From assembly GCA_964439975.1 (NCBI GenBank), contig CAYTPD010000003.1:764-64763 (forward strand): 64,000 nucleotides of DNA, given 5' to 3'. Of the stretch, positions 2,240-22,883 are shown piece after piece (the stretch's first letter is position 1; every line of letters starts with the position of its first letter). The position numbers and the translations under genes are program-made. The stretch is from an uncultured Candidatus Saccharibacteria bacterium (GTDB lineage: Bacteria > Patescibacteriota > Saccharimonadia > Saccharimonadales > Saccharimonadaceae). A model generated the notes under the pieces. The model made no database searches. It saw nothing but the letters and a program-made list of their open reading frames with translations, and was not told where the DNA came from.

Positions 2240-3268
2240 CCGCAAGGTTATCTAAACTCACGAGATGAAAATAATCAGCCAACGATCATCATTGACCCAG
2301 ACCGTTTTTATGTACTTCAACGGATGTTTAAGTTATATTTGACTGGAAATTATAGTGTACTAGATTTGCTCAGTATTTTGAACGACGATTATCACTTTAC
2401 TACATTGAAGCGTAAGAAAATTGGTGGTAAACCTTTAACTCTGGGTGGTCTACACGGTATTTTAGAAAACACATTTTACATGGGTAAGGTTAGAGATATT
2501 GAGGATAGAAATATCTTTCATCAAGGAGCATGGCAACCCATGATTACTGAAGATGAATACTGGAGGGTTCAACGTTTAAAAAGTAAGTATGCCGAAGATC
2601 ATAATTTGAGGTCAACAACACTTGTTAAATCTGCTCGCTATGAACTCAAAGGTTTGCTAAGTTGTGCGAGCTGTGGCTGTGCGATTATTGGAGAACACCA
2701 TGATCGTCCACTAGCTGACGGCACCTTTGCTGAGCATATGTATTATAAATGCACCAAGAAAAGCCCTTATCGTAAATGCAATATGCACGGAACTATCAGC
2801 GAGGAAGAAGCGTTTAGGCAAATCGACGCAATTCTTGACCACTATATACTCCATCCACTACTATATCAGTGGGCTATGAAAATCTTAGACAAGATTAGGG
2901 AAAAAGAACTTTTGGAAAGATATGACGTTGCTAAAATCAAAAATGCGAGCATGGATGATTGCGAAAAGCAGCTTCACGAACTCGTAAGTATGCGTACTCG
3001 TGGAATTATTGATGATGAGCTGTTTGCTAGAGGGTCTAAACGTATTCAGTCTTTAATGGAAGATATTAAACGTTCTACCGAAGACAATGAGGAACGTCAA
3101 CGTAAATGGTATGAGGTCATTGGCAAAACTCTCAACACCCTTACAAGCCCTAAAGAAAAGTTTGACCTAGCTGAAGATATTGGTGAACGTAGATCAATCC
3201 TGCTCGCTATTGGTCCAAAAGTCACTCTCCGCCAAGTTTACGATATTAGCGAACTAAACGAAGAATAA
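2240..3268 (+). pseudogene. large serine recombinase remnant (recombinase domain, zinc ribbon, coiled coil) lacking the N-terminal catalytic resolvase domain
   Basis: ORF 2192..3268 switches at codon 17 from HD-like sequence to PQGY...IIIDPDRFYVLQRMFKLYLTGNYSVLDLLSILN...GLLSCASCGCAIIGEHH...YYKCTKKSPYRKC. DNA becomes visibly AT-richer from about 2250. Fused in frame to the HD remnant. Confidence 0.65.
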
Positions 3269-4001: not shown

Positions 4002-4697
4002 TCATATTTGAGGATTTGACCTAATAAAGTTCCGACTTTGATCAGCGTCTTTCTTTACTCGACGATAGAGAGTAATCTGTGCGCCAGCATAAGTTTTGTT
4101 ATTAATAATTGTCAAATTTGCTAATTCAGCTAAACTGTTTGCGCTTGACTTTTTTGGGTGAGACAAGGCAAGAATTCCATCGTCTTTTAGATAAGTCAAC
4201 AATTTAGCGATTTCCGCTGGATCAAAGTGTTCATATGGAGGATCAGCGATAATGAGGTCAAATTTTATATCAGCTTGGTCAGGAGCGCCAGTCTGGCTAG
4301 CGCTAATGTGAGTAAAATTACTATTCGCTGATAACTTAGCGACGTCGCCGACGATGATGCGTGCTAGTTGTTGCTCAAGTTGAAAAGTGGGCGGATTTTC
4401 GCTTTGCTTGAGGAAGCCAAGTTCGGTGAGGTTGTCGGAAATTAATCGCGCTACTGCTGGCACTTTTTCGACAAAAATTACTTCTTGTACGCCACGACTA
4501 AGTGCCTCGAGTCCGACTGCGCCACTCCCAGCGTAAGCATCCAGCACCTTAGTCTGGCTGGACAAATAAGGTTGAAGCATATTTAAAAGAGCGTTTTTCT
4601 CGCGAGACCCCATCGGATGAACACGTCGGTCTTGGGGTGAAGCCAGCTTCCGGCCACGAAATTTTCCACTGACGATCTGAATTGTGGGATTATACAT
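4002..4697 (-). CDS. rsmD: 16S rRNA (guanine966-N2)-methyltransferase RsmD
   Basis: IVSGKFRGRKL, VLDAYAGSGAVGLEALSRG and DLIIADPPY motifs. GAGGA SD upstream of the ATG. Confidence 0.85.
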   Translation of the reverse strand: MYNPTIQIVSGKFRGRKLASPQDRRVHPMGSREKNALLNMLQPYLSSQTKVLDAYAGSGAVGLEALSRGVQEVIFVEKVPAVARLISDNLTELGFLKQSENPPTFQLEQQLARIIVGDVAKLSANSNFTHISASQTGAPDQADIKFDLIIADPPYEHFDPAEIAKLLTYLKDDGILALSHPKKSSANSLAELANLTIINNKTYAGAQITLYRRVKKDADQSRNFIRSNPQI

Positions 4698-4814
4698 ATT
4701 TTATTCCTCGTATTTTAGGAGATCTTCGTAGATCTCGCGAAGCTTAGTTTACCTAATTATAACTCTAAATCTGCCGAACGGTCGCTCCGGAAGTACGGCA
4801 ATAGTTCAAAATCA

Positions 4815-5702
4815 TTATTTTTTGTCTTTATTCTTCGAAGTAGAGCGAAGACGCAAATTTGAGGGTCGCGTCAGATGATAAGCTTCTTCAACCGCTGAAA
4901 ACCAAAGTAGCGCAATCACTTTAGCAATAGTTGGGAGAAGAACTTTTTTAGTCTCGAGCGCAAGCTGTGTGGTCCAACCCTCCGTACGAAAGCGCTCATA
5001 CATTCTCAGGCCAGCAATTTTTTCCAAAGCATCCAAAAAAGCCTGCTCTGGATCAACATGCTTAAAGCTAGCTTTGGGGATTTTTGGCATTAAAGCGTGA
5101 CGTGGCAAGCTTGCCGCAATAATTACAATACCATATTCGAAGCCAACATGCTTCGTCATAACACCACCAGCCCCCCAATAAAGCCAGTTATTCCGAGCGG
5201 TTTCTAGACCATTTCGGCCGTGCATAATTCCCTTCACTGGCTCGCCGAAAACCTTGACAAATTCCTTATTAGTCATTAGTTCTTCTTTTGTATCAGAGAG
5301 AGGATAATGGTGCGCTGGCGTCAGACCGTCAGCTATGTAATGCGCCATCCAGGCCGCCTCAAAGGCTGCACGCAAGTCATCGTGTTTTTTTAGAGCTTGC
5401 ATTAAATTCCAACGATGGTCTAAAATGACTTGCAAGAGTTTCATGTCCTTATCTTGCGGTTGTAAACTTTCGTCCAATGTGAGCATATGAGACGGTTCAT
5501 CTTGTCCAGGACTTTTACGTTTCAGTCCGTCTGGACCCCGGACGCCTTCAAAATAAATAATCTCTTTACTGCTGGGGAAATAACGTCCTCGAGGTAGATG
5601 ACGCGCCAAAATTTGGCGAGCAGCCTGATCAAGTTGTTGGTGCGTGCCAATCAACTTACCGGAAAGCTTTGAATTTTTCACTAAGGCAGTAGTAGAATAC
5701 AT
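4815..5702 (-). CDS. hypothetical protein, possibly zinc-dependent phospholipase C / P1-nuclease-like fold
   Basis: 295-aa ORF. The GTHQQL...AA and HYIADGLTPAHH histidine motifs are reminiscent of that superfamily. This is from memory only. Confidence 0.5.
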   Translation of the reverse strand: MYSTTALVKNSKLSGKLIGTHQQLDQAARQILARHLPRGRYFPSSKEIIYFEGVRGPDGLKRKSPGQDEPSHMLTLDESLQPQDKDMKLLQVILDHRWNLMQALKKHDDLRAAFEAAWMAHYIADGLTPAHHYPLSDTKEELMTNKEFVKVFGEPVKGIMHGRNGLETARNNWLYWGAGGVMTKHVGFEYGIVIIAASLPRHALMPKIPKASFKHVDPEQAFLDALEKIAGLRMYERFRTEGWTTQLALETKKVLLPTIAKVIALLWFSAVEEAYHLTRPSNLRLRSTSKNKDKK

Positions 5703-5755
5703 AATAAAGTCTACTTATATTCTACCATATTTTGCCAAAAAATGGGGGTTTGTGG

Positions 5756-7822
5756 CTAGTTTAAGGTTGTAAGTTGCTGATATTTTTTAATTCGTCCGAG
5801 TAACTCTGGATAATCCTTGAGTTGCTCAGGCTTTTTAGCAAATTCGCCAGCATGATGACTAGCCTGAGCGATTAATTCTGCATCTGTCAAGTTGGCAACC
5901 TGGAGGTCTAATTCACCGTGTTGCATAGCGCCATAGATTTCGCCTGGTCCACGAATTTTTAGATCTACTTCGGCGAGGTGAAAGCCGTCGGTCGATTTTT
6001 CCATCTCCCGCAGTCGCTTCGATGGTTTTCCGTCCGCGGTTGTCAAGAGGTAACAACTAGCCGGTTGATCGCCTCGCCCGACTCGTCCGCGAAGCTGATG
6101 AAGTTGAGCTAGTCCATAGCCTTCCGCATCCTGAATAACAATCATATTGGCGTTTGGTACGTTTACACCCACTTCAACCACGGTAGTAGAAACTAAAATT
6201 TGGATCTTGTTTCGTGCAAATTCATCCATAATATGATCTTTTTCATCAGGTTTCATCTTGCCGTGCAACATAGCAACCGTCACGTCTGGGAAGAGTTTGG
6301 TGAGTTTTTCAGCCTGCTTCTTGACTGGCGTCGCTGTGTTGGTATTCTTTTCCTCAATGACTTGACAAATCCAATAAATTTGCTGGCCTTTAGCTAGAAT
6401 TTCGCGCATTTTCGGATATAATTCATCGGTCTGTGAGACTTCCGGCAAGATCTTAGTAGTGATCGGTTGACGGCCCGGTGGCAGTTCGTTAACAATCGAG
6501 ACATCGAGATCGCCAAAAATAGTCAATTGTAAAGAGCGGGGGATCGGCGTGGCAGTCATCGAAAGCAGATGTGGCGCAGTATCAGGCGGAGATTTTAGCA
6601 GTAATTTTTGGCGCTGACCAACACCAAAACGATGTTGTTCATCAATAATACAAAACGCTAAAGATTGAAAATGGGTATCATCGGTCAGTAGGGCGTGAGT
6701 ACCGATAACAACATCGATCTGCCCTTCCTGAATCAACTTCTTCAGCATGCGCTTACGGGGAGTCGATCCAATCAAAAGCGCAATGCGTGGCACACGTAGA
6801 TGAGAAAATTTTGCGACCAATTGGTCGAACAAGGTCTGCAAACTTTCGAAATGTTGCGTGGCAAGGATCGCGGTCGGCGCCAGGAGGGCAGTTTGGTGAC
6901 CGTCTTGGGTAGCTTGGGCCGCCGCAATCGCAGCGACAATAGTTTTTCCAGAGCCAACATCCCCCTGTAAGAGCCTATTCATTGGGGTGGGGCGCTCAAG
7001 ATCTTGGAGAATTTCCCAAGTTGCACGTCGCTGAGCATTCGTCAGGCGAAACGGCAGACTTTGCACTAATTTACGCACAAAATCTTGCTGAAATTTAATC
7101 GGTAGAGATTTTAGGCGGAGGTTTTCCTGTTGATTCAGCTTGGCCGCCAGAATTAGCTCAAACAATTCTTCGTAGGCGAGGTATTGGCGCGCAGTCTCTG
7201 CCTCCTCAGGGGTCTCAGGAAAATGCGAATTATACAAGGCTTCAGCGCGAGCGCCAGGATTGACAAAGTCGGGTCTCCCCTCCGTAAATGGCAATAAATC
7301 TGGGATTTTTGCAAAGTCAGGTCGGAGATTTTCGAGCAATTTTCGGAAAGTTTGGGGTTTAAGCGAACTTTTGGCGGAGTAAATCGGTTGAAAACCGTTG
7401 ACGCTTTCTGCCTCAACATCTTGCGCCAAGGTCGCGGAGGGCGAAGTCAGCTGATAGCGACCGGTTTTGAGCTCGTAGCGACCGGAAAAAAAGTACTCTC
7501 GCTTATCGTCAAATTGTTTGGCGCGATATGGTTGATTAAACCAGATTGTACGAATTGCGCCAGTATGATCACGAATCACACCTTCGGTAATTGTCAAACG
7601 CTTACGGCTAGTACGAATAACTCGCAAATCGCTAATTTTCCCTCGAACAATCACTTTCCCGGGGCGTAAATCTTCGATATTGACCGTGGTTTGATAATTC
7701 TCATAAATGCGAGGCAAAAGATAGACCAAATCGCCAATCGTACACAAGTTTACACGACGCAAAGCTTCGGCAGTGCGCGGTCCAACCCCTTTTACCTCCT
7801 CGATGGGCGCTAACAAATCCAT
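5756..7822 (-). CDS. recG: ATP-dependent DNA helicase RecG
   Basis: GDVGSGKT, DEQHRFGV and QLRGRVGRG motifs. Start moved to ATG 7822 (MDLLAPIEEVKGVG), which sits 7 nt after GTGCTATAAT. Confidence 0.9.
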   Translation of the reverse strand: MDLLAPIEEVKGVGPRTAEALRRVNLCTIGDLVYLLPRIYENYQTTVNIEDLRPGKVIVRGKISDLRVIRTSRKRLTITEGVIRDHTGAIRTIWFNQPYRAKQFDDKREYFFSGRYELKTGRYQLTSPSATLAQDVEAESVNGFQPIYSAKSSLKPQTFRKLLENLRPDFAKIPDLLPFTEGRPDFVNPGARAEALYNSHFPETPEEAETARQYLAYEELFELILAAKLNQQENLRLKSLPIKFQQDFVRKLVQSLPFRLTNAQRRATWEILQDLERPTPMNRLLQGDVGSGKTIVAAIAAAQATQDGHQTALLAPTAILATQHFESLQTLFDQLVAKFSHLRVPRIALLIGSTPRKRMLKKLIQEGQIDVVIGTHALLTDDTHFQSLAFCIIDEQHRFGVGQRQKLLLKSPPDTAPHLLSMTATPIPRSLQLTIFGDLDVSIVNELPPGRQPITTKILPEVSQTDELYPKMREILAKGQQIYWICQVIEEKNTNTATPVKKQAEKLTKLFPDVTVAMLHGKMKPDEKDHIMDEFARNKIQILVSTTVVEVGVNVPNANMIVIQDAEGYGLAQLHQLRGRVGRGDQPASCYLLTTADGKPSKRLREMEKSTDGFHLAEVDLKIRGPGEIYGAMQHGELDLQVANLTDAELIAQASHHAGEFAKKPEQLKDYPELLGRIKKYQQLTTLN

Positions 7823-9355: not shown

Positions 9356-9883
9356 ATGTACAACATTCTAGAGAAGGTCGGGCGGAAATACCGCGAGATG
9401 GTAATAGTCGACCTTGAACGCAGGGTCGAGCCCACGCTAACGGAGAAAAATAATGGTTGGCTAGGTTTATTACACGGCAGTTTGTTTGGGGAGTCAATCC
9501 TATTTGTTCTAACATACTGTATAACACTAATGGTTAACGAGTCGAGCTCTGGGGTTTGGGTCCGTTTTTGTCTGTTTGGCTCAATATTCTGTGCTCTATT
9601 TTATACAGTAGCCGAAGCAATGCGTCAAATTATAAGTCTTTTTATACTGGACTGTCATCAAGACAGGCGAAGAGCCCCGAAATATACTATCTTGAAGGAT
9701 CTTTGTTTGATAATCGTAGCGCATATTATACTTTTGTGCTTTATGATAGCGCTACAAATTGATGAAAGCCAGGGTAGCTTAGCAAATTTTTGGATTGTCA
9801 TGTCCTTGCTTTGTAGCATAAGTCTATTCTGTAGCTTGATGTATTGGCACTATATTCGCCAAGATTATAAGCGGGCTTCTTGA
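9356..9883 (+). CDS. hypothetical integral membrane protein (about 4 TM segments), AT-rich gene
   Basis: ORF track 9335..9883. ATG 9356 preferred because GGGGGA lies 9 nt upstream. Hydrophobic stretches include SILFVLTYCITLMV, FCLFGSIFCALFY, LCLIIVAHIILLCFMIAL and WIVMSLLCSISLFCSLMYW. Confidence 0.6.
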   Translation: MYNILEKVGRKYREMVIVDLERRVEPTLTEKNNGWLGLLHGSLFGESILFVLTYCITLMVNESSSGVWVRFCLFGSIFCALFYTVAEAMRQIISLFILDCHQDRRRAPKYTILKDLCLIIVAHIILLCFMIALQIDESQGSLANFWIVMSLLCSISLFCSLMYWHYIRQDYKRAS

Positions 9884-9888
9884 GTGTC

Positions 9889-9915
9889 AAAGACTCTCCT
9901 TAGGGAGGGTCTTTT
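9889..9915. terminator. intrinsic terminator after the 9356..9883 gene
   Basis: AAGACTCTCC, loop TTAG, GGAGGGTCTT followed by TT. Confidence 0.6.
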
Positions 9916-10035
9916 GCTTGCTTGTGCTTAGTACCGTTAAGGTTGGTTGAGTTGGGAACTACAAGAATGACATAGCTATGCCTGATATTTCTGTTGTAGC
10001 ACAGATTAGCAAAAAAAGTCAATAGTTAGGCGGGT

Positions 10036-11454
10036 TTATTGCTCGACTAAGGTGAATTCACGATCAGCGATCGAGATAATCGAATCGGGTTGAGCGCCTT
10101 GGTTGGTTAGTTCAGCGCGGATGCCGAGTTTTTTAAGGATATCGCGCAGACGATTGACGGAAGCATAATTATTGAGGTCAGTGCGCCGCGCAAATTTTTC
10201 GATCTTTGGGCCAGTCACAATGAATTTTTCGCCCACTTTTTCAACTTTCCAAGCTTTACTGAGGTGCTCAGGACCAAGTGTGATAACCGGAATTGGTGCG
10301 GGTTGTTTAGTATCAGGACTTTCAGCTGGAATATCTTCCCTTTGGTTGTCTCTGTACTCGCCCCAATGAGCGTTTCGCAGGTCGCTCTCATGAGCATTTC
10401 TCTGCCTGCCGCCTAGCGTATTTCTTCTCTGAGAATTTGCTTCGACACCAACTTGAGCATCGGTCGAGCGGACGCTTTGTTTCAGCTTGACAAGCGTGCG
10501 TAATAATTCAGTAATCCCTTGATGACTAACAGCAGAAATAGCAAAGATTTTCGCGTCGGGATTGACTGTGCGGATTGAATTTTCTTGCATGGCGATAATT
10601 TCGTCGTCCACGCCTTCACATTTAGTCAAAGCAACTACTTCGGGACGTTCACTCAGCCCGTGGTAGCGCTCAAGCTCACCGCGAATAACCTGGTATGCCT
10701 GACCCGCGTCATCGTTGTAGACATCAACTAAGTGCAATAATACCGCTGTTCGTTCGACATGACGGAGAAAATCGTGACCAAGACCTTTTCCTTCGGCAGC
10801 TCCTTCGATTAGTCCGGGAATGTCAGCAATCAACAAATCTTGACTGTCGATGGTTGCAACGCCCAGTTGAGGTGTAAGCGTTGTGAAGGGATAGTCGGCG
10901 ATCTCCGGGCGAGCATTTGATACTACGCTTAGAAAAGTCGATTTGCCGGCGTTTGGCAATCCGACTAGACCAATATCGGCCATGGTTTTTAGTTCAAGCG
11001 CGACTTCGAAAGCTTCACCTTCTTCGCCAACCTCGGCGATTCGAGGAGTTTGGCGCGTAGAGGACTTAAAGTGAGCATTACCAAAGCCACCGTCGCCGCC
11101 TTTCGCAATCGTCGCCTGTTCGCCGTCGTGCGTGAGGTCGGCGAGGATCTGCCCGTCGTCGATCCGCGTCACTACGGTGCCGATTGGCACTTCAACGATC
11201 TTGTCGTGGCCACTGTGGCCAGCGGAACGCTGGCCAGCACCATTTTTTCCATTTTCGGCTTTAATCTCCGGATTAAAGCGAAAATCGAGCAGCGTATTGG
11301 TGTCCTTGTCGGCCCGAAAAATGATTGAGCCGCCTTTTCCACCGTCGCCGCCATCCGGTCCACCTTTTGGGATATAGATCTCGTGTCGGAAAGAAACCGC
11401 TCCGTCACCACCTTTTCCCGCCTGCAATCGTACTTTTGCTACATCAACAAACAT
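10036..11454 (-). CDS. obg: GTPase Obg/CgtA with a C-terminal Obg-CT (DUF1967-like) domain and a long linker
   Basis: MFVDVAKVRLQAGKGGDGAVSFRHE..GGPDGGDGGKGG Obg fold, then GLPNAGKST, DIPGLIEGA and TKCE G-motifs. Confidence 0.9.
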   Translation of the reverse strand: MFVDVAKVRLQAGKGGDGAVSFRHEIYIPKGGPDGGDGGKGGSIIFRADKDTNTLLDFRFNPEIKAENGKNGAGQRSAGHSGHDKIVEVPIGTVVTRIDDGQILADLTHDGEQATIAKGGDGGFGNAHFKSSTRQTPRIAEVGEEGEAFEVALELKTMADIGLVGLPNAGKSTFLSVVSNARPEIADYPFTTLTPQLGVATIDSQDLLIADIPGLIEGAAEGKGLGHDFLRHVERTAVLLHLVDVYNDDAGQAYQVIRGELERYHGLSERPEVVALTKCEGVDDEIIAMQENSIRTVNPDAKIFAISAVSHQGITELLRTLVKLKQSVRSTDAQVGVEANSQRRNTLGGRQRNAHESDLRNAHWGEYRDNQREDIPAESPDTKQPAPIPVITLGPEHLSKAWKVEKVGEKFIVTGPKIEKFARRTDLNNYASVNRLRDILKKLGIRAELTNQGAQPDSIISIADREFTLVEQ

Positions 11455-12758: not shown

Positions 12759-14330
12759 TTATAGCGCTACGTTACAGAGGTCCTGACAATGTTCATCTCG
12801 ATTCTGTTGATGCCCTTCCTCTGTACTACTATAATACATCATTCCGTCGTCTCCTGTCAAGAAGAATAGATATTCACTGGCGTTTTCACTATCAGGGCTA
12901 GCCGTGGCGACCAAAGCTTCTTTCCCAGGGTTAGAAATCGGCCCGTAAGGTAGGCCAGGGTGCTTACGAGTATTATAGGGCGAGTCAATTTCGAGCGCCG
13001 CTAGGTTGTCTTTATAAGTTTCGCGATTGGGGTCGACTAAATCGACTGCATATTGCGTCGTCACATCACTTCCGAGATTCATATCTTGGGCAAGACGATT
13101 ATAGAAGACCTGGGCGATTTTTGCCCAATCGGCAGCATTATTGCCCTCTTTTTGGACAACCGAAGCTAGAGTAATACCTTGGTAGAGATTGAAGCCACGT
13201 TCAGCAAATTTGTCTTGCAGATGATTTTCTTTAATCACTTTAGCCATTTCGCTCAACATACGCTTAACAATAGTGGTCGGCGTATCAGATTGGAGAAATT
13301 CATAAGTTTCACCAAACAAATAACCTTCGAGGCTCGCGCCTTCTGGACGCCCTTCGAAGATCCAGGCGAAGTCGTCCTCGCTATAATCAGTTGCGAGAGC
13401 CTCATCGATCGCCTGCTCAGCATAACCGTTCTTTTGCAACTCTGATTTGATTTCGCGCAGAGTCGCGCCAGGAAGAACCGTCAAGGAGAAGACATTTTTA
13501 TCCTTGCTACCGCCAACCATAATGTCGATGATCTGCTCAGGTGTCATGGTTTTATTGAATTGATAATCACCGGATTTAATTGTGTCGATACTAGAATAAT
13601 TAAGACGAAAATACAGCTGAAAAACAATCGAATTACGGATCAAATCGGCATTTTTGAGATTCAAAGCAATCTCGCTGGTGCTTTGGCCGTCAGCAACCGT
13701 AAAGTCAACCATTTGGCAGGGCGAGTCAACACCGGTATTCGCAGAGCAGTCAGCATCTTTTGCAACAGGTTGGAGACTGTAAAGATAAAAGCCGTATGCT
13801 CCGCCGCACGCCACCAACAAAGTTAAGATAATGACAATTACTGCGGTCAAAAGATGGTGTGTACGGGGTTGTTTACGTCCTTTGACAGATTGACGTTTAG
13901 CAGAAGTCGCTTTAGTAATTGATTTACCACTGCTATGTTGCTCGAGAAAATCTTGAAGGATAATGGTCGCAGCTTCTGAATCGATATCGCCTTTTTTGTA
14001 GCTTTTCTTGCGCTTTTTCAGACGTTTTTCGGCCTCTACTGAAGTCAGAGACTCATCTTGGAAGCAAAGCTTAGCGTCGGGCATGGCCTGTTTGAGCGCT
14101 TGGGCAAATTGACGGACATAGGCGGTCTGTTTGGTTTCATTGCCTTCGTTGCTACGGGGCAACCCCAAGACAAAACAATTAATATCCCAGGCGCGTGCTA
14201 AGGAAGCAATTTTTTTGAATTCCTCGCCGTCAACTTCAATAGCCGAATAAGGTACTGCGACGCGGACATTGGAATCTGCCTTCGCGACACCGATACGCTT
14301 TGTCCCAACATCAAGTCCGATTAATTTCAT
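12759..14330 (-). CDS. ruvX-mltG: fusion protein: RuvX/YqgF nuclease domain, TM helix, then MltG/YceG endolytic transglycosylase
   Basis: N-terminus MKLIGLDVGTKRIGVAKAD...GLPRSNEGNET..DESLTSVEAE (YqgF). TM HLLTAVIVIILTLLVACGGAYGFYLY. C-terminus LEGYLFGETYEF, ASVVQKEG, FYNRL, YNTRKHPGLPYGPISNPG (YceG). Confidence 0.8.
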   Translation of the reverse strand: MKLIGLDVGTKRIGVAKADSNVRVAVPYSAIEVDGEEFKKIASLARAWDINCFVLGLPRSNEGNETKQTAYVRQFAQALKQAMPDAKLCFQDESLTSVEAEKRLKKRKKSYKKGDIDSEAATIILQDFLEQHSSGKSITKATSAKRQSVKGRKQPRTHHLLTAVIVIILTLLVACGGAYGFYLYSLQPVAKDADCSANTGVDSPCQMVDFTVADGQSTSEIALNLKNADLIRNSIVFQLYFRLNYSSIDTIKSGDYQFNKTMTPEQIIDIMVGGSKDKNVFSLTVLPGATLREIKSELQKNGYAEQAIDEALATDYSEDDFAWIFEGRPEGASLEGYLFGETYEFLQSDTPTTIVKRMLSEMAKVIKENHLQDKFAERGFNLYQGITLASVVQKEGNNAADWAKIAQVFYNRLAQDMNLGSDVTTQYAVDLVDPNRETYKDNLAALEIDSPYNTRKHPGLPYGPISNPGKEALVATASPDSENASEYLFFLTGDDGMMYYSSTEEGHQQNRDEHCQDLCNVAL

Positions 14331-16090
14331 TTACCCTCCTCGACCGTCAGCTCGACATGTACTTTGTTGCGGTCGTTCGGGATTGAGGTAACCCAGAAGA
14401 AAGAAGTTCGTATATCGACGGTACTGACGCCAGTGATACGTTTCAGATCAGATTGGACTTGACCAATTTTCTGACCTTTGGAACGATCAAAAATCTCTTC
14501 TTCAGTCACGGTCGGACCAGATTCAGTGATCGCTTTTAGACGTGCTGGCTGATCAATATTCTCGAAATGCTCAAAGTATGGCTCACCATAAGAATAAATT
14601 CGCTGATCATCTGCTAAATTAGATTTCTTTTTAATATACTCTTCGATTTTGGTCTTATCGACGACATAGATGCTGTATTTTTTGGTTGCTGTAACCGTGG
14701 GTTTTGTACCGTCGGAGACTTCTTCGCCAATCGCAGGACTAGAGGTCGCATCGGGTGTTTCAGATTGATAGCTGGCTTCGATGGGCAACATAGTGTCTTT
14801 AATATCTTTATAAAGCATTTCTTTACCATCGGCTGATTCACGCTCGTTGATCTCATTCTTAGCTTTATCCACGTCGGAATGGGTAACGATCGAGACGATT
14901 TTGGTCGATCCACCAGAGATTGAGCCGGTATTGACTACTGTGTTGCCTTCAAAGCTTCCCCAGCTACTGCCAGCATCGAGATTAAATTCTGCGCCGGGAT
15001 TCGAAGCTTGAATATTTACCGTGACCGACAATTCGCAAGGTTTGGCTTTGGAAATTTCTTTGTTTGAGGAATAGGTTTTGCCACTGCAGGTCAGAGGTGG
15101 CTCACCGTTCCAACCTGGAGCAGCGCCACCAGAGGTCGCGACGTAAGTTTTGCCACCGCTGATAAACTGATCCCCCTCGTTGACACTAATGCCGGCGACT
15201 TCTTTGCCTAAATAATCGTCTGGCTTGAAGCTTTTGCTAATCGTAACCTCACCGCGGGCTTTTTCACCCCGGTCTTCTTGTCCGGTAGCGCTAAAGTTGA
15301 CTTCTTGCTTTTCTTCGTAAGTGATTTTTTCGGCGTAAAGCTTCCCTTCGTCGATGTTTTCGTCGGCCATATTGGTGGTGAAATTCACACTTTCGGAGAA
15401 GTTATTCGAAATAGTATTAATCGCTACGACGATATCGGTAGCTGGGGCAAAAACTAAGGCCCATACCACAAAAACGATCAACAATACACCCGCTACAGCG
15501 CCGATAATGATTTTTTTTCGTTGTTTGGCAAAATTCGGCACTTTTTTGTTTTTTGCGCCTTTTTGACCCTTTTTACCACCATTTTTAGCATCCTTAGAGC
15601 CTTTTTCAAGCGTTTCGTCGGTAAACTCGAGATTATCCCCACTTTTTCCGGAAGTACCCTGAGAAGCGCTTTTAGATGTCTCAGGAGACGTTTTAGCGCG
15701 ATTTTTTTCATCATTATCAGATTTTTTGGCATTTTTGGCCGATTGACTGGAAGTTGAATCGTTGTTTTCGTCAATGACCTGCTCAGCCGCCTCAGATTCG
15801 CGCAAGCTCTCTTCGGTCGGTACAACTGGACGAGATTGGAGATTTTTTGCGACGGGGATCTTCGCCGCCATAGCGAGTTTTAAGATAGCGGGGTCAGAAG
15901 TCACCACCACGGCGACTTTTTCGCCTTCTTTGGCTGCTTTCGCGACCAATTTCATATTTACCGCACTGCGGAGAATGGTAGCCTTCTTGGGCGGGACAAG
16001 GGCGACCAATTTTTCTTTCGCCTGTTGGAGCTTAGTCAAGATGTCGGTAATGTCGTCATCCGGCTCCAAATAAATAACTTCCTTGTTCAT
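14327..16090 (-). CDS. hypothetical single-pass membrane protein with a conserved-looking N-terminal cytoplasmic domain, a K/S-rich linker and a large extracytoplasmic part
   Basis: 587-aa ORF, ATGA overlap with the downstream gene. TM IIIGAVAGVLLIVFVVWALVF. TGTGCTATATT lies 9 nt upstream of the ATG. Confidence 0.6.
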   Translation of the reverse strand: MNKEVIYLEPDDDITDILTKLQQAKEKLVALVPPKKATILRSAVNMKLVAKAAKEGEKVAVVVTSDPAILKLAMAAKIPVAKNLQSRPVVPTEESLRESEAAEQVIDENNDSTSSQSAKNAKKSDNDEKNRAKTSPETSKSASQGTSGKSGDNLEFTDETLEKGSKDAKNGGKKGQKGAKNKKVPNFAKQRKKIIIGAVAGVLLIVFVVWALVFAPATDIVVAINTISNNFSESVNFTTNMADENIDEGKLYAEKITYEEKQEVNFSATGQEDRGEKARGEVTISKSFKPDDYLGKEVAGISVNEGDQFISGGKTYVATSGGAAPGWNGEPPLTCSGKTYSSNKEISKAKPCELSVTVNIQASNPGAEFNLDAGSSWGSFEGNTVVNTGSISGGSTKIVSIVTHSDVDKAKNEINERESADGKEMLYKDIKDTMLPIEASYQSETPDATSSPAIGEEVSDGTKPTVTATKKYSIYVVDKTKIEEYIKKKSNLADDQRIYSYGEPYFEHFENIDQPARLKAITESGPTVTEEEIFDRSKGQKIGQVQSDLKRITGVSTVDIRTSFFWVTSIPNDRNKVHVELTVEEGK

Positions 16091-16171
16091 ATATTACTTA
16101 ATATAGCACACATTGTTTTGCTTGTGCTAAACATTTTTGTTTTGATAATTATTATGTTAAAATGGAAGGTG

Positions 16172-17743
16172 ATGAGTTTATTCAATTTTAATAAAAAACG
16201 TAGCCCAGCGACCAATGGTATGGGACAGAACAATACCGCGATGTTGGCCGAGCTGGCGCTCGATACGATTACTGACGGCGTGATAATCGTCGACAGCCGT
16301 GGCACGATTAAATACGCTAATCCCGCGGCAGCTAACTTGACGGGATACGATAGCCCTAATAATATTGTCGGTCTCGATTATCAGTTGGTCATTAAATTAG
16401 AAAATACCGAGGGAGCGCCGATTGTACCCGAGGACAACCAATTAACCAAAGCCCTGGAGCGTAATCAAGCCATGTCTACGCGGGATTACCTGCTTGTGGC
16501 AGCAAAGACTGGTCGAAAAGTTGCAGTAGCCTTGAGTTGTGTTCCGGCAAATGGCTTAAATTCTGACCGAATTATTACTTTCCGCGACATTGCGAAGGAG
16601 CTGGAAGAGGCGGGCGCGCAGACCGAGTTTATTTCGACTGCTAGCCATGAGATGCGTACGCCAGTGGCCTCGATTGAAGGCTATTTAGGATTAGCGCTCA
16701 ACCCGCAGACCGCGACAATTGACGATCGCGCGCGTCAATATCTCGAGGCCGCACATTCTTCTAGTCAACATCTAGGACATCTTTTTAAGGACCTTCTGGA
16801 CGTCACAAAATTGGACGACGGTCGGATGCGTATCCATCTCGTGCCGGTTGAGATCGTCTCAGTCGTGAAAAAATTTGCCGATGAAAGGCAACCAGATATT
16901 CTAAAAAAGCGCCTAAAATACAGCTTTGGTACGACAGGACCTGTGAATAATGGTACCCAAGTCGAGCCTTTGGTTTATGCTGCGGTTGATTTGGACTTTT
17001 TGCGAGAAATCTTGGATAACTTGATTGGTAATGCGATTAAATACACTCCAGAAGGGGGTGAAATTTGGGTCAATGCTCGCGGAGATGGTGATAAAGTTTT
17101 GATTAATGTTACGGACACAGGGATCGGTGTAGCGCCGGACGATTTGACGCATATTTTCCAGAAGTTTTATCGCGTTGATAACTCCCAGACTCGACAAATC
17201 GGTGGTACTGGCTTGGGACTTTATCTAGTCAAACAACGCGTCGAAGCAATGAACGGGCGAGTTTGGTGCGAGAGTTCGTTCGGCGACGGTTCAACTTTCT
17301 TTGTCAGCCTACCTCGCTTGAGCGATCAAGAATATGGACGCATGCGGATCGCTTATGAGAACGAACAGGCCGTGCAAGCCTTCGAAAGCGCTAATATGCA
17401 ACGCTCAGCCCTCCAGACGCCCAGCTCGATCAGTAGTAGTGCGGTGCAGAACCCTCTGGCAGAAAATACTCCGGCAAATACCGTAGAGGCGCAAGACTCT
17501 GCGCCGATGCAACCGCAGGCTCAACCATCGATGCCAACACAGATTCAGTCGCAGACGCAACCGCAGATGTCGCCCCAGACTCAGCCACAGATACCAATGC
17601 CAACGCAAGCTCCAGCGCAAATGCCGATGCCTCCGACACAAGTTTCAGCGCCAGTGCAGCCGATGCCAACCGTAAATAATGTCAACCCTCCACAAACGCT
17701 TAGTTCTAATGGTATAATGGATCAAAATAAGGAGTCTGTATGA
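16172..17743 (+). CDS. sensor histidine kinase (PAS, HisKA, HATPase) with a P/Q-rich C-terminal tail
   Basis: PAS-like ITDGVIIVDSRGTIKYANPAAANLTGY. H-box FISTASHEMRTPVASIEGYL. N/G boxes LIGNAIKYTPEGG, DTGIGV and GGTGLGLYLV. Start set to ATG 16172 after GGAAGGTG. Confidence 0.85.
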   Translation: MSLFNFNKKRSPATNGMGQNNTAMLAELALDTITDGVIIVDSRGTIKYANPAAANLTGYDSPNNIVGLDYQLVIKLENTEGAPIVPEDNQLTKALERNQAMSTRDYLLVAAKTGRKVAVALSCVPANGLNSDRIITFRDIAKELEEAGAQTEFISTASHEMRTPVASIEGYLGLALNPQTATIDDRARQYLEAAHSSSQHLGHLFKDLLDVTKLDDGRMRIHLVPVEIVSVVKKFADERQPDILKKRLKYSFGTTGPVNNGTQVEPLVYAAVDLDFLREILDNLIGNAIKYTPEGGEIWVNARGDGDKVLINVTDTGIGVAPDDLTHIFQKFYRVDNSQTRQIGGTGLGLYLVKQRVEAMNGRVWCESSFGDGSTFFVSLPRLSDQEYGRMRIAYENEQAVQAFESANMQRSALQTPSSISSSAVQNPLAENTPANTVEAQDSAPMQPQAQPSMPTQIQSQTQPQMSPQTQPQIPMPTQAPAQMPMPPTQVSAPVQPMPTVNNVNPPQTLSSNGIMDQNKESV

Positions 17744-18435
17744 CCAAAATCATGTTAGTCGAAGATGATAACAGTCTTCGGGAGATTTATAGTATTCGTT
17801 TAACGGCGGAAGGTTACACGATTGTTGCGGCTGGAGACGGTGAGGAGGCGCTGGCCATGGCAGTGCGCGAACGCCCTGACTTGATCATCTCTGATGTTAT
17901 GATGCCGAAAATTTCAGGTTTTGACATGTTGGATATTCTTCGCTCAACGCCCGAAACGAAGGATATTCGAGTCATCATGATGACAGCTTTGTCGAGTGAG
18001 GATCAACGCAATCGGGGCGAAAATCTAGGCGCTGATCGCTATTTAGTCAAGTCACAGGTCGGGATAGAGGACGTTGTGAACGCCGTGCATGAAGTTTTGG
18101 GCGATCGCAATACGGACGGAACAATTAACGCAAGCGTGAACTTAAATGAAACTTCGCAAAATGTGCCCCAGCCAGCACAGCAAGGTGTCGGACAAACTGT
18201 ACCTCAAGCTTCACCGATCCCGGTCGGCCCAGCTCAAGGAATGCCTGCGCAGGCGAGCTCGATTCCGCCAATGCCAGCGCCTGTCGCGGGAGCACCGATC
18301 GCTCCAAACCAGATTCAAGCTAGCGAACAAGTCAGTGTCGGTCCGCAAGTTCAAAGTGAGGCGCCAGCCGTACCAGAGCCGGCAAGTTTCGTGGCGCCGA
18401 TCACGAATAGCGTTGAGCCTGGTCAGCCATCTTAG
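17740..18435 (+). CDS. single-domain response regulator (REC only) with a P/Q/A-rich tail and no recognisable output domain
   Basis: MLVEDD...DLIISDVMMPKISGFD...MMTAL...YLVKS receiver motifs. Residues ~125-231 are low complexity. ATGA overlap with the kinase. Confidence 0.8.
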   Translation: MTKIMLVEDDNSLREIYSIRLTAEGYTIVAAGDGEEALAMAVRERPDLIISDVMMPKISGFDMLDILRSTPETKDIRVIMMTALSSEDQRNRGENLGADRYLVKSQVGIEDVVNAVHEVLGDRNTDGTINASVNLNETSQNVPQPAQQGVGQTVPQASPIPVGPAQGMPAQASSIPPMPAPVAGAPIAPNQIQASEQVSVGPQVQSEAPAVPEPASFVAPITNSVEPGQPS

Positions 18436-19278: not shown

Positions 19279-19423
19279 GTAGTCTTTCTGAGTTTACTCT
19301 TCTTCTAGGATTAGTAAAGTATCTTCCATGCACATAGTACTAGTTGCTGTAAATCTAGGAGAACGTTCTATTTGCCATTTTCTACTTTCGTTTCTAACAA
19401 GAGGATTCTTTTTCGTAGTAGTA

Positions 19424-19528
19424 CTAGCTTGCCTTTCTTCGAGACCCACTCCAGCGCCCGTCTTCACGGGGCTGTCGTTCCTCGTGCCGAGCTTCGGCAC
19501 TCTTTTAATCTCTTGAAAGGCAAGCTAG
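19424..19528. other. 105-nt palindromic structured element (14-bp perfect outer stem enclosing two GC-rich hairpins)
   Basis: CTAGCTTGCCTTTC 19424-19437 pairs with GAAAGGCAAGCTAG 19515-19528. Inner hairpins are CCCG-TCTTCA-CGGG (19457-19470) and GTGCCGA-GCT-TCGGCAC (19484-19500), the latter followed by TCTTTTAAT. Confidence 0.5.
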
Positions 19529-19623
19529 CACTATTACAAATCGATGCATATTCTTAGAAAAGAAAAGTAGAAGAAAATATCAAATAATATTATTCGAGAG
19601 TTAATATTATTTCTCTCCTAATT

Positions 19624-19804
19624 ATCCTATGTGCGGAGCGGGTATATTTATTTGCATGAATATGTTTTATGGAATTCTAATTTTGAAGGATATTATTGGC
19701 TAAATATGACTAATTCTGGAATATGGAGTGCTTATAGCTTTGGTATGAATATGTTATATACTAATTCGTTATTTCCTACTAATCGTTACAATGCTTTCCC
19801 CGTC
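19624..19804 (+). other. cassette A: 181-bp truncated coding module (58 codons from an internal GTG), Asn-rich
   Basis: Starts with ATCCTATGTGCGGAGCGGGTAT and ends with GCTTTCCCCGTC. An in-frame stop lies 4 codons upstream of the GTG. No RBS. Confidence 0.7.
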
Positions 19805-19837
19805 AAGCTAAACAAAGATAGTATTCTTTCCTCTATA

Positions 19838-20018
19838 ATCCTATGTGCGGAGCGGGTATGCAACGCCATTGCTTGGCACATTGAGATTTGCGGGTATTGA
19901 TGGCTATAATTGGTCACAATTTGCCAGAACAGAGGATGAATATGCCTACGCTTTTAGCTTAAACCATCAAGAAACTTACGCATCCCGCTATGGTGATCGA
20001 TTTGTTGCTTCCCCCGTC
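19838..20018 (+). other. cassette B: 181-bp truncated coding module
   Basis: Identical 22-bp 5' box; 3' box GCTTCCCCCGTC. TATAAT lies 5 nt upstream of the GTG. An in-frame stop lies 3 codons upstream. Confidence 0.7.
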
Positions 20019-20026
20019 ATGCATTG

Positions 20027-20207
20027 GACGAGCAAAGCAGTGTAGCGGCTGCGATAATTGAATGAGTAGATCCTTTGATTATCCATGACGAGGTAGTGAG
20101 CGTAATACGTCTCCAGTCGAGCCATGCCCGACCAATTATAAGCATTAGCGCCAGCGTTCCTCACGGTATTATAGTCCAAATCAATATTTCCGCTCCGCAC
20201 ATAGGAT
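20027..20207 (-). other. cassette C: 181-bp truncated coding module, inverted, tail-to-tail with B
   Basis: 5' box matches 20/22 (ATCCTATGTGCGGAGCGGAAAT). 3' box GCTTTGCTCGTC. Only 8 nt separate the B and C 3' boxes. Confidence 0.7.
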
Positions 20208-20251
20208 AGTAAAAGAGAGATAATGTAGCTAAATTAGAGGTTTGCTAGCGT

Positions 20252-22075: not shown

Positions 22076-22152
22076 GCACTCGTAGCTCAGTGGATTAGAG
22101 CACTGGTCTTCGGAACCAGGTGTCGTAGGTTCGAATCCTATCGAGTGCGCCA
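22076..22152 (+). tRNA. tRNA-Arg (anticodon TCG), CCA encoded
   Basis: GCACTCG TA GCTC AGTGGATTA GAGC A CTGGT CTTCGGA ACCAG GTGTC GTAGG TTCGAAT CCTAT CGAGTGC G CCA. TGTGGTATAAT promoter about 20 nt upstream. Confidence 0.9.
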
Positions 22153-22179: not shown

Positions 22180-22290
22180 GTTCGGAGGCTTCGAGGTTAC
22201 CTCCAAACAACATGATCTATTCTCTATTTCTTGTTTGGTTTCAGCCGATTAAAGCTCACGATGCTCTAAATATATTATCCCTCTTCCACT

Positions 22291-22471
22291 ATCCTATGTG
22301 CGGAGCGGGTATATTGATCCTCGATATCAAACTTTGCCTTACGGAGGTATTTCCATTTTTAATTGGTTGGGCGTGGCTCGGCCAGAACATACCTACGCCG
22401 ATGGTCTCGGCATAGATGATCAGAATATTTATTCGCGTGCACACTATGATCGCTATATTGCTTTCCCCGTC
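22291..22471 (+). other. cassette D: fourth 181-bp truncated coding module
   Basis: Identical 22-bp 5' box at 22291-22312. 3' box GCTTTCCCCGTC at 22460-22471. Stop 3 codons later. An in-frame stop lies 10 codons upstream of the GTG. Confidence 0.7.
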
Positions 22472-22808: not shown

Positions 22809-22883
22809 TGGTACGCTTGGCCGGAGTCGAACCGACATTACTGGCTCCGGAGGCCAGCGTTCTATCCATTGAACTACAAGCGC
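22809..22883 (-). tRNA. tRNA-Arg (anticodon CCG), CCA encoded
   Basis: GCGCTTG TA GTTC AATGGATA GAAC G CTGGC CTCCGGA GCCAG TAAT GTCGG TTCGACT CCGGC CAAGCGT A CCA. G1-U72 wobble. Confidence 0.8.

Follow-up and report, generated by a model that had tools for sequence, protein, structure and literature searches.

Detached, box-delimited FISUMP C-terminal modules in a Saccharibacteria contig: a candidate silent repertoire related to diversity-generating retroelements

The 64-kb stretch of an uncultured Candidatus Saccharibacteria genome analysed here (contig CAYTPD010000003.1; hereafter the window) carries four 181-bp units, each corresponding to a detached C-terminal module of the FISUMP domain. 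Three are clustered: the Asn-rich unit A (19624..19804, + strand; hidden Markov model (HMM) E=4e-29), unit B (19838..20018, +; E=2e-31) head-to-tail with A, and unit C (20027..20207, -; E=3e-30), which is tail-to-tail with B, lies on the strand of the ABC-F gene, 44 nt 3' of it. The fourth, D (22291..22471, +; E=3e-32), is a solo module flanked by tRNA-Arg(TCG) (22076-22152, +) and tRNA-Arg(CCG) (22809-22883, -). The units had first been placed by a reading of the letters without database searches (the sequence-only reading), and sequence comparison and a box search confirmed its coordinates together with the 22-mer and the 3' 12-mers it had described at the unit ends. At the 5' boundary a pyrimidine-rich tract runs into a 22-nt box (19604..19645 (+) in A, picked up as a repeat family, as inverted repeats and by the box search; 19818-19859 (+) in B, 20186-20227 (-) in C and 22271-22312 (+) in D). 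The 3' boundary is a shorter box, in A the adenine-free TGCTTTCCCCGTC (19792..19804, +) that encodes A-F-P-V, with counterparts at 20006-20018 (+), 20027-20039 (-) and 22459-22471 (+) in B, C and D. The 33 nt between A and B (19805..19837, +) read KLNKDSILSS in the frame of A, and a similar spacer, KLNKQTISFLL, joins two units in a related protein (P0153); the open reading frame (ORF) of A continues into B, out of frame. B and C meet tail-to-tail, with 8 nt, ATGCATTG (20019..20026), between their 3' boxes, and from 20007 to 20038 boxes and junction (GCTTCCCCCGTC ATGCATTG GACGAGCAAAGC) make up an imperfect 12-bp palindrome that is not followed by a T-run.

The 22-mer, ATCCTATGTGCGGAGCGGGTAT, is exact at 19624+, 19838+ and 22291+ and has two mismatches at 20186-20207 on the minus strand; when up to three mismatches are allowed the window yields four matches, as against none in 100 shuffles. 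Between pairs of the four units the 5' box is identical at 20-22 of 22 positions and the 3' box at 9-12 of 12, whereas the interiors are 37-56% identical in DNA, with 25 of 147 interior columns invariant. The peptides align without a gap or indel and share S1, Y2, V3, R4, S5, G6, W25, A36, R54, A57 and V60 (numbered from the 'SY' ahead of the GTG), an alignment and a set of invariant residues that agree with the sequence-only reading. Of the six frames only that of the GTG is uninterrupted in every unit, stops occurring in the rest bar one reverse frame in D; when the interiors are shuffled the probability of an open frame is 0.011, 0.044, 0.059 and 0.064 for the individual units and ~2e-6 jointly. 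Three of the earlier statements hold in part. The frames are open as claimed, but not for exactly 58 codons, since the ORFs run 3-31 codons past codon 58 (89, 66, 70 and 61 aa); in-frame stops do lie upstream of every box, at 2-16 rather than 3-16 codons 5' of the GTG; and the constant length of 181 bp applies to the window units but not to a related one, on contig L002, that is 6 nt longer.

Direct scans of the four peptides against the Pfam and NCBIfam HMMs, including FISUMP TIGR02145 and PF09603 (Fib_succ_major), gave no match at E<=10, and homology to TIGR02145 became visible through members of a wider family. A profile of six sequences, the four units with P0001 and P0002 (all that an initial word-indexed search had matched), picks out 356 of 1.84 billion representative proteins at E<=1e-3. 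One of these, P0142 (1062 aa), has three complete FISUMP domains (TIGR02145 E=6.8e-46, profile positions 1-175), and the unit aligns with the last ~58 residues of each; in the array proteins P0004 and P0113 the TIGR02145 match is confined to positions 111-173 and 116-175 of 176. On this homology, which supports the assignment well, the unit is the C-terminal third (TIGR02145 ~116-175) of the FISUMP or 'CLec2', DUF1566-like, lectin-type domain. The earlier likening of the units to FISUMP/DUF1566 C-terminal strands was right, by way of P0142 and TIGR02145. The scaffold residues G4, L13, A16-G17, Y21, W23-S24, A34-Y35, R52 and A55-F-P-V (counted here from the GTG) are kept. A PDB sequence search with a FISUMP domain returned no match.

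In full-length FISUMP genes the unit is preceded by '...SSP-F-F-F-T-R-S-G' (TCT CCA TTC TTC TTT ACG CGA AGC GGA), and the pyrimidine tract 5' of each window box can be explained as the remnant of the SSP-F/L-x-Y codons of such genes. Of the N-terminal two-thirds of the domain (WMaeNL ... CPxGWrlP) the window has nothing that tblastn with five N-terminal FISUMP queries could detect, and P0142 as a tblastn query matches solely the four units, which are therefore fragments and not domain-containing proteins. This agrees with their earlier description as precisely truncated domain fragments rather than decayed whole genes.

The significance of the ends is clearer in a subclade of 27 proteins with window-type 'SYVRSG...AFPV' termini, for which unit DNA is available from four contigs besides the window (L008/L009, L002, L003 and L036). 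In ten units from five contigs, ranging from 34 to 48% GC, the 5' box is conserved at 90% or above and the 3' box at ~80-90%, synonymous sites included. The 5' box is adenine-poor and ~22-24 nt long (boundary consensus cCACTATCCTATGTGCGGAGCGG), with conservation reaching 10-20 nt further 5' as the pyrimidine-rich tract; the 3' box is 12-13 nt, lacks adenine and has as its consensus the sequence found in A, being shifted or degraded in two of the ten. The interiors show scattered codon-level conservation only. Conservation at synonymous sites across contigs of such varied composition indicates constraint at the nucleic-acid level and not at the protein level alone. Both halves of the sequence-only claim, DNA-level conservation of the borders and protein-level constraint between them, are thereby borne out, the interior keeping its scaffold while variability falls on ligand-binding positions.

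The wider family was surveyed through the best 150 of the 356 profile matches. In these, 92 proteins have one unit, 43 two, 10 three, 3 four and 2 five, five being also the longest head-to-tail array in recovered ORFs. Many of the ORFs traverse successive units in differing frames: 'PMCGAG' and 'ILCAER' are the box read in its two other frames, and 'CISSVVA' is a shifted frame of 'MYFVRSG'. Two members, P0143 and P0101, keep part of the N-terminal FISUMP sequence (TIGR02145 38-175 and 43-176, below the curated cut-off); P0143 bears SPLSFVRSG, P0101 is of the type found on contig L034, described below, and P0113 is a Bacteroidetes-like multi-unit ORF. The best interior identity of a window unit with any of 113 ungapped units is 37-43%, none exceeding 43%. 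Unit D and P0003.2 share 65% identity over their N-terminal halves and 19% over their C-terminal halves, a hint of mosaic similarity between units, and A has a near-counterpart in P0086 that is read out of frame. The GC content of clade unit interiors (26-50%) does not track that of the host contig.

Units can be numerous on one contig. The parent contig of the window (70,319 bp; the window ABC-F is P0156) probably has at least six, counting a two-unit ORF, P0005, which is recorded on a contig of equal length and would lie in the ~6 kb outside the window, and a 68,493-bp NCBI contig has at least seven unit-bearing ORFs (P0003, P0152, P0010, P0015, P0019, P0025 and P0104). On L008/L009 one unit lies ~250 nt past a tRNA 3' end, in a region identical over 1221 bp in two samples; with unit D, this suggests that units may favour intergenic DNA flanking tRNAs or terminators. 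Both L002 and L003 are contigs of Lachnospiraceae metagenome-assembled genomes (MAGs), each with a unit; that of L002 (CAJTYN010000162; unit ORF 2661-3011, -) lies tail-to-tail beside an integrase gene of phage type (2003-2650, Pfam E=3e-24), in a phage-like context. L036 (34% GC) has three units and Agr/LytTR genes, and a neighbour of its array considered as a serine recombinase gave coiled-coil matches only. Searched as an 18-mer against one genome per species, the box gave chance matches and the two Lachnospiraceae MAG contigs; a metagenome scan gave 24 matches, each due to chance or to an unrelated conserved gene and none a genuine unit, and IMG/VR gave no match. The units themselves have no match in phage and plasmid collections.

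As usually described, diversity-generating retroelements (DGRs) use one template to rewrite one or a few variable regions (VRs) at the ends of complete target genes. VRs of FISUMP-type fold are already known: those overlapping Fib_succ_major/DUF1566 form target category 'd' (CLec2; DUF1566, DUF823 or Fib_succ_major motifs; Legionella LdtA type) (Wu et al. 2018, PMC5758913), and 43 FISUMP DGR targets have been reported (PMC11661182). The family leads to such an element on L034 (ENA ERZ1948694 contig_3270), a sibling of the contig that encodes the five-unit P0004. L034 has a reverse transcriptase (RT) gene (4543-5566, -; GNLTSQ...YVDDF, RVT_1 E=2e-8) adjoined by a possible accessory (Avd-like) ORF that matches nothing in Pfam, and by an AAC-rich unit copy, the template repeat (TR; 4249-4422, +), convergent with it; the VR is carried by a FISUMP target gene (about 8282-7100, -). 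The same contig has a partial unit (9834-9944) ahead of a free-standing, in-frame array of five (10007-10864) and, 6 kb from the array, a solo unit (17155-17286). Within the unit core, VR and TR differ at 15 of 53 TR adenines and at none of 120 other bases. In the array, partial and solo units 32-50% of adenines are changed, against 2-13% of other bases (each p<=1.5e-4), the bias being present in all seven copies besides the VR, and no N-terminal FISUMP sequence adjoins the detached copies. By this pattern of substitution the detached solo and tandem units of L034 are demonstrably DGR products. In the array the 3' end of a unit (GFSV-RC) overlaps the 5' start of the next (V-RGG) in GTRCGCKGCG, which is present at both ends of the TR, and we infer that this short terminal repeat may give rise to arrays, through misaligned resolution or template switching. 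The array protein is equal unit for unit, frameshifts aside, in two independent assemblies (P0004, NCBI; P0151, ENA), and is therefore not visibly being rewritten. Judged by its L034 homologues the unit segment is the variable and template-repeat module of a DGR, a connection that the sequence-only reading overlooked.

The composition of the window units may hold traces of the same chemistry. Where the L034 TR encodes Asn, the entropy of the 113 ungapped units is 3.19 bits, against 2.16 elsewhere (p=6e-6), and the contrast is present in the four window units alone (p=0.03). The third base of these codons is a pyrimidine in 61 of 72 cases in the window as against 78 of 132 elsewhere (background 0.58; p=1e-4), and in 131 of 144 against 172 of 264 in eight ungapped clade units (p=2e-9). 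Lys is absent from all 232 codons of the units (background 6.4%, p=3e-7), Tyr makes up 12.5% (background 3.1%) and Asn 8.2% (4.3%). The pyrimidine excess is no more than suggestive of an AAY to NNY mutagenesis footprint and may partly reflect a preference for Tyr, Asn and Asp. The interior of A has 26% GC, against 43-46% in B-D and 45% in the window, and contains 8 Asn (AAT) codons, 5 of them at Asn positions of the L034 template; its composition suggests a template, and no matching variable copy was found.

We favour, tentatively and with less than even confidence, the view that the units are silent, box-delimited hypervariable modules kept as a donor or template reservoir. They would constitute a repertoire of alternative binding-surface modules, anchored by the adenine-poor 5' box (~24 nt) and the adenine-free 3' box (13 nt), through which a full-length gene for a FISUMP surface protein, located elsewhere in the genome, could receive a copy of a unit, the acceptor being expected to bear CTATCCTATGTGCGGAGCGG...GCTTTCCCCGTC. 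Copying might proceed by short-homology gene conversion or by DGR-type cDNA synthesis with the unit as an alternative template. Diversity would reside in the interiors, scaffold residues being retained and the canonical DGR-variable positions scrambled. If the example of L034 is a guide, detached solo and tandem units would originate as DGR products, and the window copies would be old and diverged, their ends still maintained and the DGR machinery absent from the window. Substitutions at all bases have saturated the interiors, which nevertheless have no indels and no stops and retain the scaffold of a fold that needs the missing N-terminal part. That boxes and frames are kept while interiors diverge is unlike neutral debris, which would be expected to lose all alike. 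A scan for sigma-70-like promoters found 8 sites where 7.5 were expected, none of them at a box, and no Shine-Dalgarno (SD) sequence was present. The earlier comparison with donor cassettes of the msp2/pilS/vls type stands as regards promoterless truncated copies, conserved flanks and a variable in-frame core; an expression-site gene with these boxes was found neither in the window nor among the retrieved family members.

Other evidence weighs against such a reservoir. Neither the window nor the 150 best family members, where P0142 is the sole complete FISUMP protein, yielded an acceptor gene with the window boxes; the window box is absent from all four members with N-terminal FISUMP-type sequence (P0142, P0143, P0101 and P0113). 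For recombination of the RecA type, boxes of 24 and 13 nt are short, and in the ten clade units no sequence resembling an initiation of mutagenic homing (IMH) site is conserved 3' of the 3' box. Neither RT, Avd nor a GxxxSQ...YxDD motif was detected anywhere in the window (tblastn, phmmer and six-frame motif search), and the neighbours within 10 kb on either side include no recombinase of Phage_integrase or resolvase type, as the sequence-only reading had remarked of the adjacent genes. We also considered the window units as a live TR/VR set, and found that in each of the 12 ordered pairs A, C, G and T mismatch at similar rates (0.34-0.79); given mismatches independent of the base and the 25 of 147 invariant interior columns, they are not a live TR/VR set of one template. 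The pyrimidine signal is weaker when restricted to four-fold-degenerate codons (window 13/17 against 40/62, p=0.27, background 0.64; clade 33/38 against 96/138, p=0.023). Decaying copies exist, the L003 unit having one frameshift and a degraded or lost 3' box. Lastly, relatives whose ABC-F is 77-80% identical have no units and a different gene order, and the units are therefore lineage-specific and sited at a synteny break.

Several of these points bear equally on the principal rival, that the units are non-functional by-products: fossil retro-copies, or remnants of DGR TR/VR or FISUMP gene ends, left by past DGR activity or horizontally transferred elements and decaying in intergenic DNA. We regard this as a serious possibility, only a little less likely than the reservoir. 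The detached copies of L034 show that DGR products without an attached domain exist, and in the window there is no RT, acceptor gene or promoter to suggest further use. The absence of units from relatives, the synteny break, the tRNA neighbours, the phage-type integrase beside the L002 unit and the frameshifted L003 copy with its degraded 3' box are all as such debris would have it, and a GC content of 26-50% that does not follow the host suggests mixed origins. Moreover no stop can result from AAY to NNY mutagenesis, so a newly born unit would have an open frame without selection. Against this, neutral decay should erode boxes and interiors equally, whereas 44-63% of interior positions differ, with every base and every codon position affected, while the boxes stay largely identical, and four units without an indel or stop are improbable by chance (the joint ~2e-6 above). 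A recent birth would instead require four to six distinct source templates in one small genome, and no box-bearing source was found in IMG/VR or the phage and plasmid collections. A second rival would make the units live parts of a DGR beyond the window, remote VRs or alternative TRs served in trans by a distant RT. Remote targets are known in Treponema (PMC5758913), the unit equals the L034 TR/VR module, the 3' box has no adenine, the units lack Lys and abound in Asn and Tyr, and AT-rich A has its Asn codons largely where the L034 template has them. However, copies of one TR would share their non-adenine positions, which the few invariant interior columns do not allow; the units stand at no target gene's 3' end, no conserved IMH, hairpin or TR spacer follows the 3' box, and there is neither RT nor Avd within 64 kb. 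We consider this explanation unlikely.

The frames also invite the view, put forward in the sequence-only reading as an alternative, that each unit is a stand-alone small gene of about 60-90 aa, translated leaderless from the box GTG by way of a -10-like element. A TAnnAT-like hexamer does end 5 nt 5' of each GTG, and gene callers start 64 of the 150 family ORFs at the box. Against this, the promoter scan is at shuffled expectation and silent at the boxes, no SD is present, and the C-terminal tails of 3-31 aa are unconserved; successive units in relatives are often mutually out of frame, the product would be one third of a beta-rich domain lacking its N-terminal two-thirds, and a peptide has no need of a 3' box conserved at synonymous sites. 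Small genes are accordingly very improbable here, and the leaderless mini-gene proposal finds no support. Least credible of all is a multi-inversion shufflon or invertible segment, as the sequence-only reading suggested, with boxes as recombinase sites and B/C as an invertible pair. The R64 Rci shufflon and the Mu Gin/G segment do have alternative C-terminal coding segments between short repeats, and the B and C boxes form inverted repeats around a tail-to-tail pair in a similar geometry. But there is no tyrosine or serine recombinase within 10 kb on either side, every box has stops upstream and none is entered in frame from a constant N-terminal coding region, the boxes contain no internal palindrome, and arrays in relatives are mostly head-to-tail, as direct repeats. 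Two further candidates were rejected. Rfam yields tRNAs only, at gathering scores and at E<=1, and the RNAalifold consensus over 221 columns, at -5.8 kcal/mol, lacks meaningful covariation, which disposes of the units as a structured non-coding RNA (ncRNA); and an att-site model with a replacement 3' gene end was dropped, since none of the arrays has the 5' part of a FISUMP gene ahead of it.

A silent donor or template repertoire, our preferred account, resembles two known kinds of system without matching either. Compared with DGR TR/VR pairs of the CLec2 type, the units correspond to the identical segment of the domain, the final ~58 codons of a FISUMP/DUF1566-like fold, and share its scaffold, variable positions, Asn/Tyr-rich and Lys-free composition with a tendency to NNY codons, and adenine-free 3' end, and their L034 homologues are a bona fide TR, VR and adenine-mutagenised copies. 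They differ in lacking RT and Avd, a TR/VR adenine pattern, a target-gene 3' end and an IMH-like flank, and in that their interiors differ at all bases. Silent gene-conversion donors are familiar from Borrelia vls, the Anaplasma msp2 pseudogenes, Neisseria pilS and the Treponema tprK donors. With these the window has in common promoterless truncated copies, short conserved flanks, a hypervariable in-frame core, a retained scaffold and mixed orientation, the units being tandem in relatives and dispersed in the window. Unlike those systems it yielded no expression site, its homology boxes of 24 and 13 nt are very short, and the likeness of the boxes across contigs of very different composition is not what vertical maintenance of one organism's cassettes would predict.

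A diversifiable module without a complete FISUMP domain is the condition of the window and of 149 of the 150 best family members, and the adenine-mutagenised arrays of L034 indicate that DGR cDNA or VR copies can land outside target genes and accumulate. In open-access full text, searched with a few phrases, we found no description of free-standing VR-only copies, solo or tandem, be they adenine-mutagenised like those of L034 or deeply diverged between conserved boxes like those of the window. It is conceivable, though we think it rather doubtful, that detached modules constitute a second tier of receptor diversification that combines cassette shuffling with adenine mutagenesis. In such a scheme lectin modules generated by, or compatible with, a DGR would be archived as silent solo or tandem cassettes between adenine-poor boxes and re-used as recombination donors or alternative reverse-transcription templates, swapping whole binding-site scaffolds; the cassette tier would persist in the lineage of the window without a nearby RT. 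If the copies are re-used they link retro-mutagenesis and cassette exchange, which are usually treated apart. If they are by-products, they constitute a genomic fossil record of DGR activity and a source of spurious small-ORF annotations, both worth knowing in DGR surveys.

Some other features of these contigs deserve mention. L002 has a DGR of its own, unrelated to the unit, with a DUF6273-type target (VR 5740-5782), an Avd-like ORF (5930-6343) and a TR (6456-6498). In the window, a very stable three-way-junction element of ~140 nt (19405-19548) lies past the stop codon of rluB and ahead of unit A. A stem of 25 bp (19412-19437 / 19515-19540) closes it, and of its two inner hairpins one reads GTGCCGAGCTTCGGCAC, with TCTTTT after it. 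The element folds at -62 kcal/mol (z=-8.8) on the + strand and at -73 kcal/mol (z=-10) on the - strand, and Rfam offers no match for it up to E<=1. Its translation (SRPTPAPVFTGLSF...) reappears at the start of P0088, ~50 aa ahead of another unit, and the adjacency of element and unit is therefore conserved in another genome; the element could be an unknown ncRNA or a terminator, or part of the unit module. Genes within 10 kb on either side of the units are housekeeping (an RluB-type pseudouridine synthase, a RuvX-YceG fusion, an FtsA-like protein and a LysM-CHAP protein). The fusion (12759-14330, -; 523 aa) joins RuvX, which is Holliday-junction-resolvase-like, to YceG/MltG, and a histidine kinase and response regulator pair (16025-18435, +) is distinguished by long Pro/Gln-rich C-terminal tails on both proteins.

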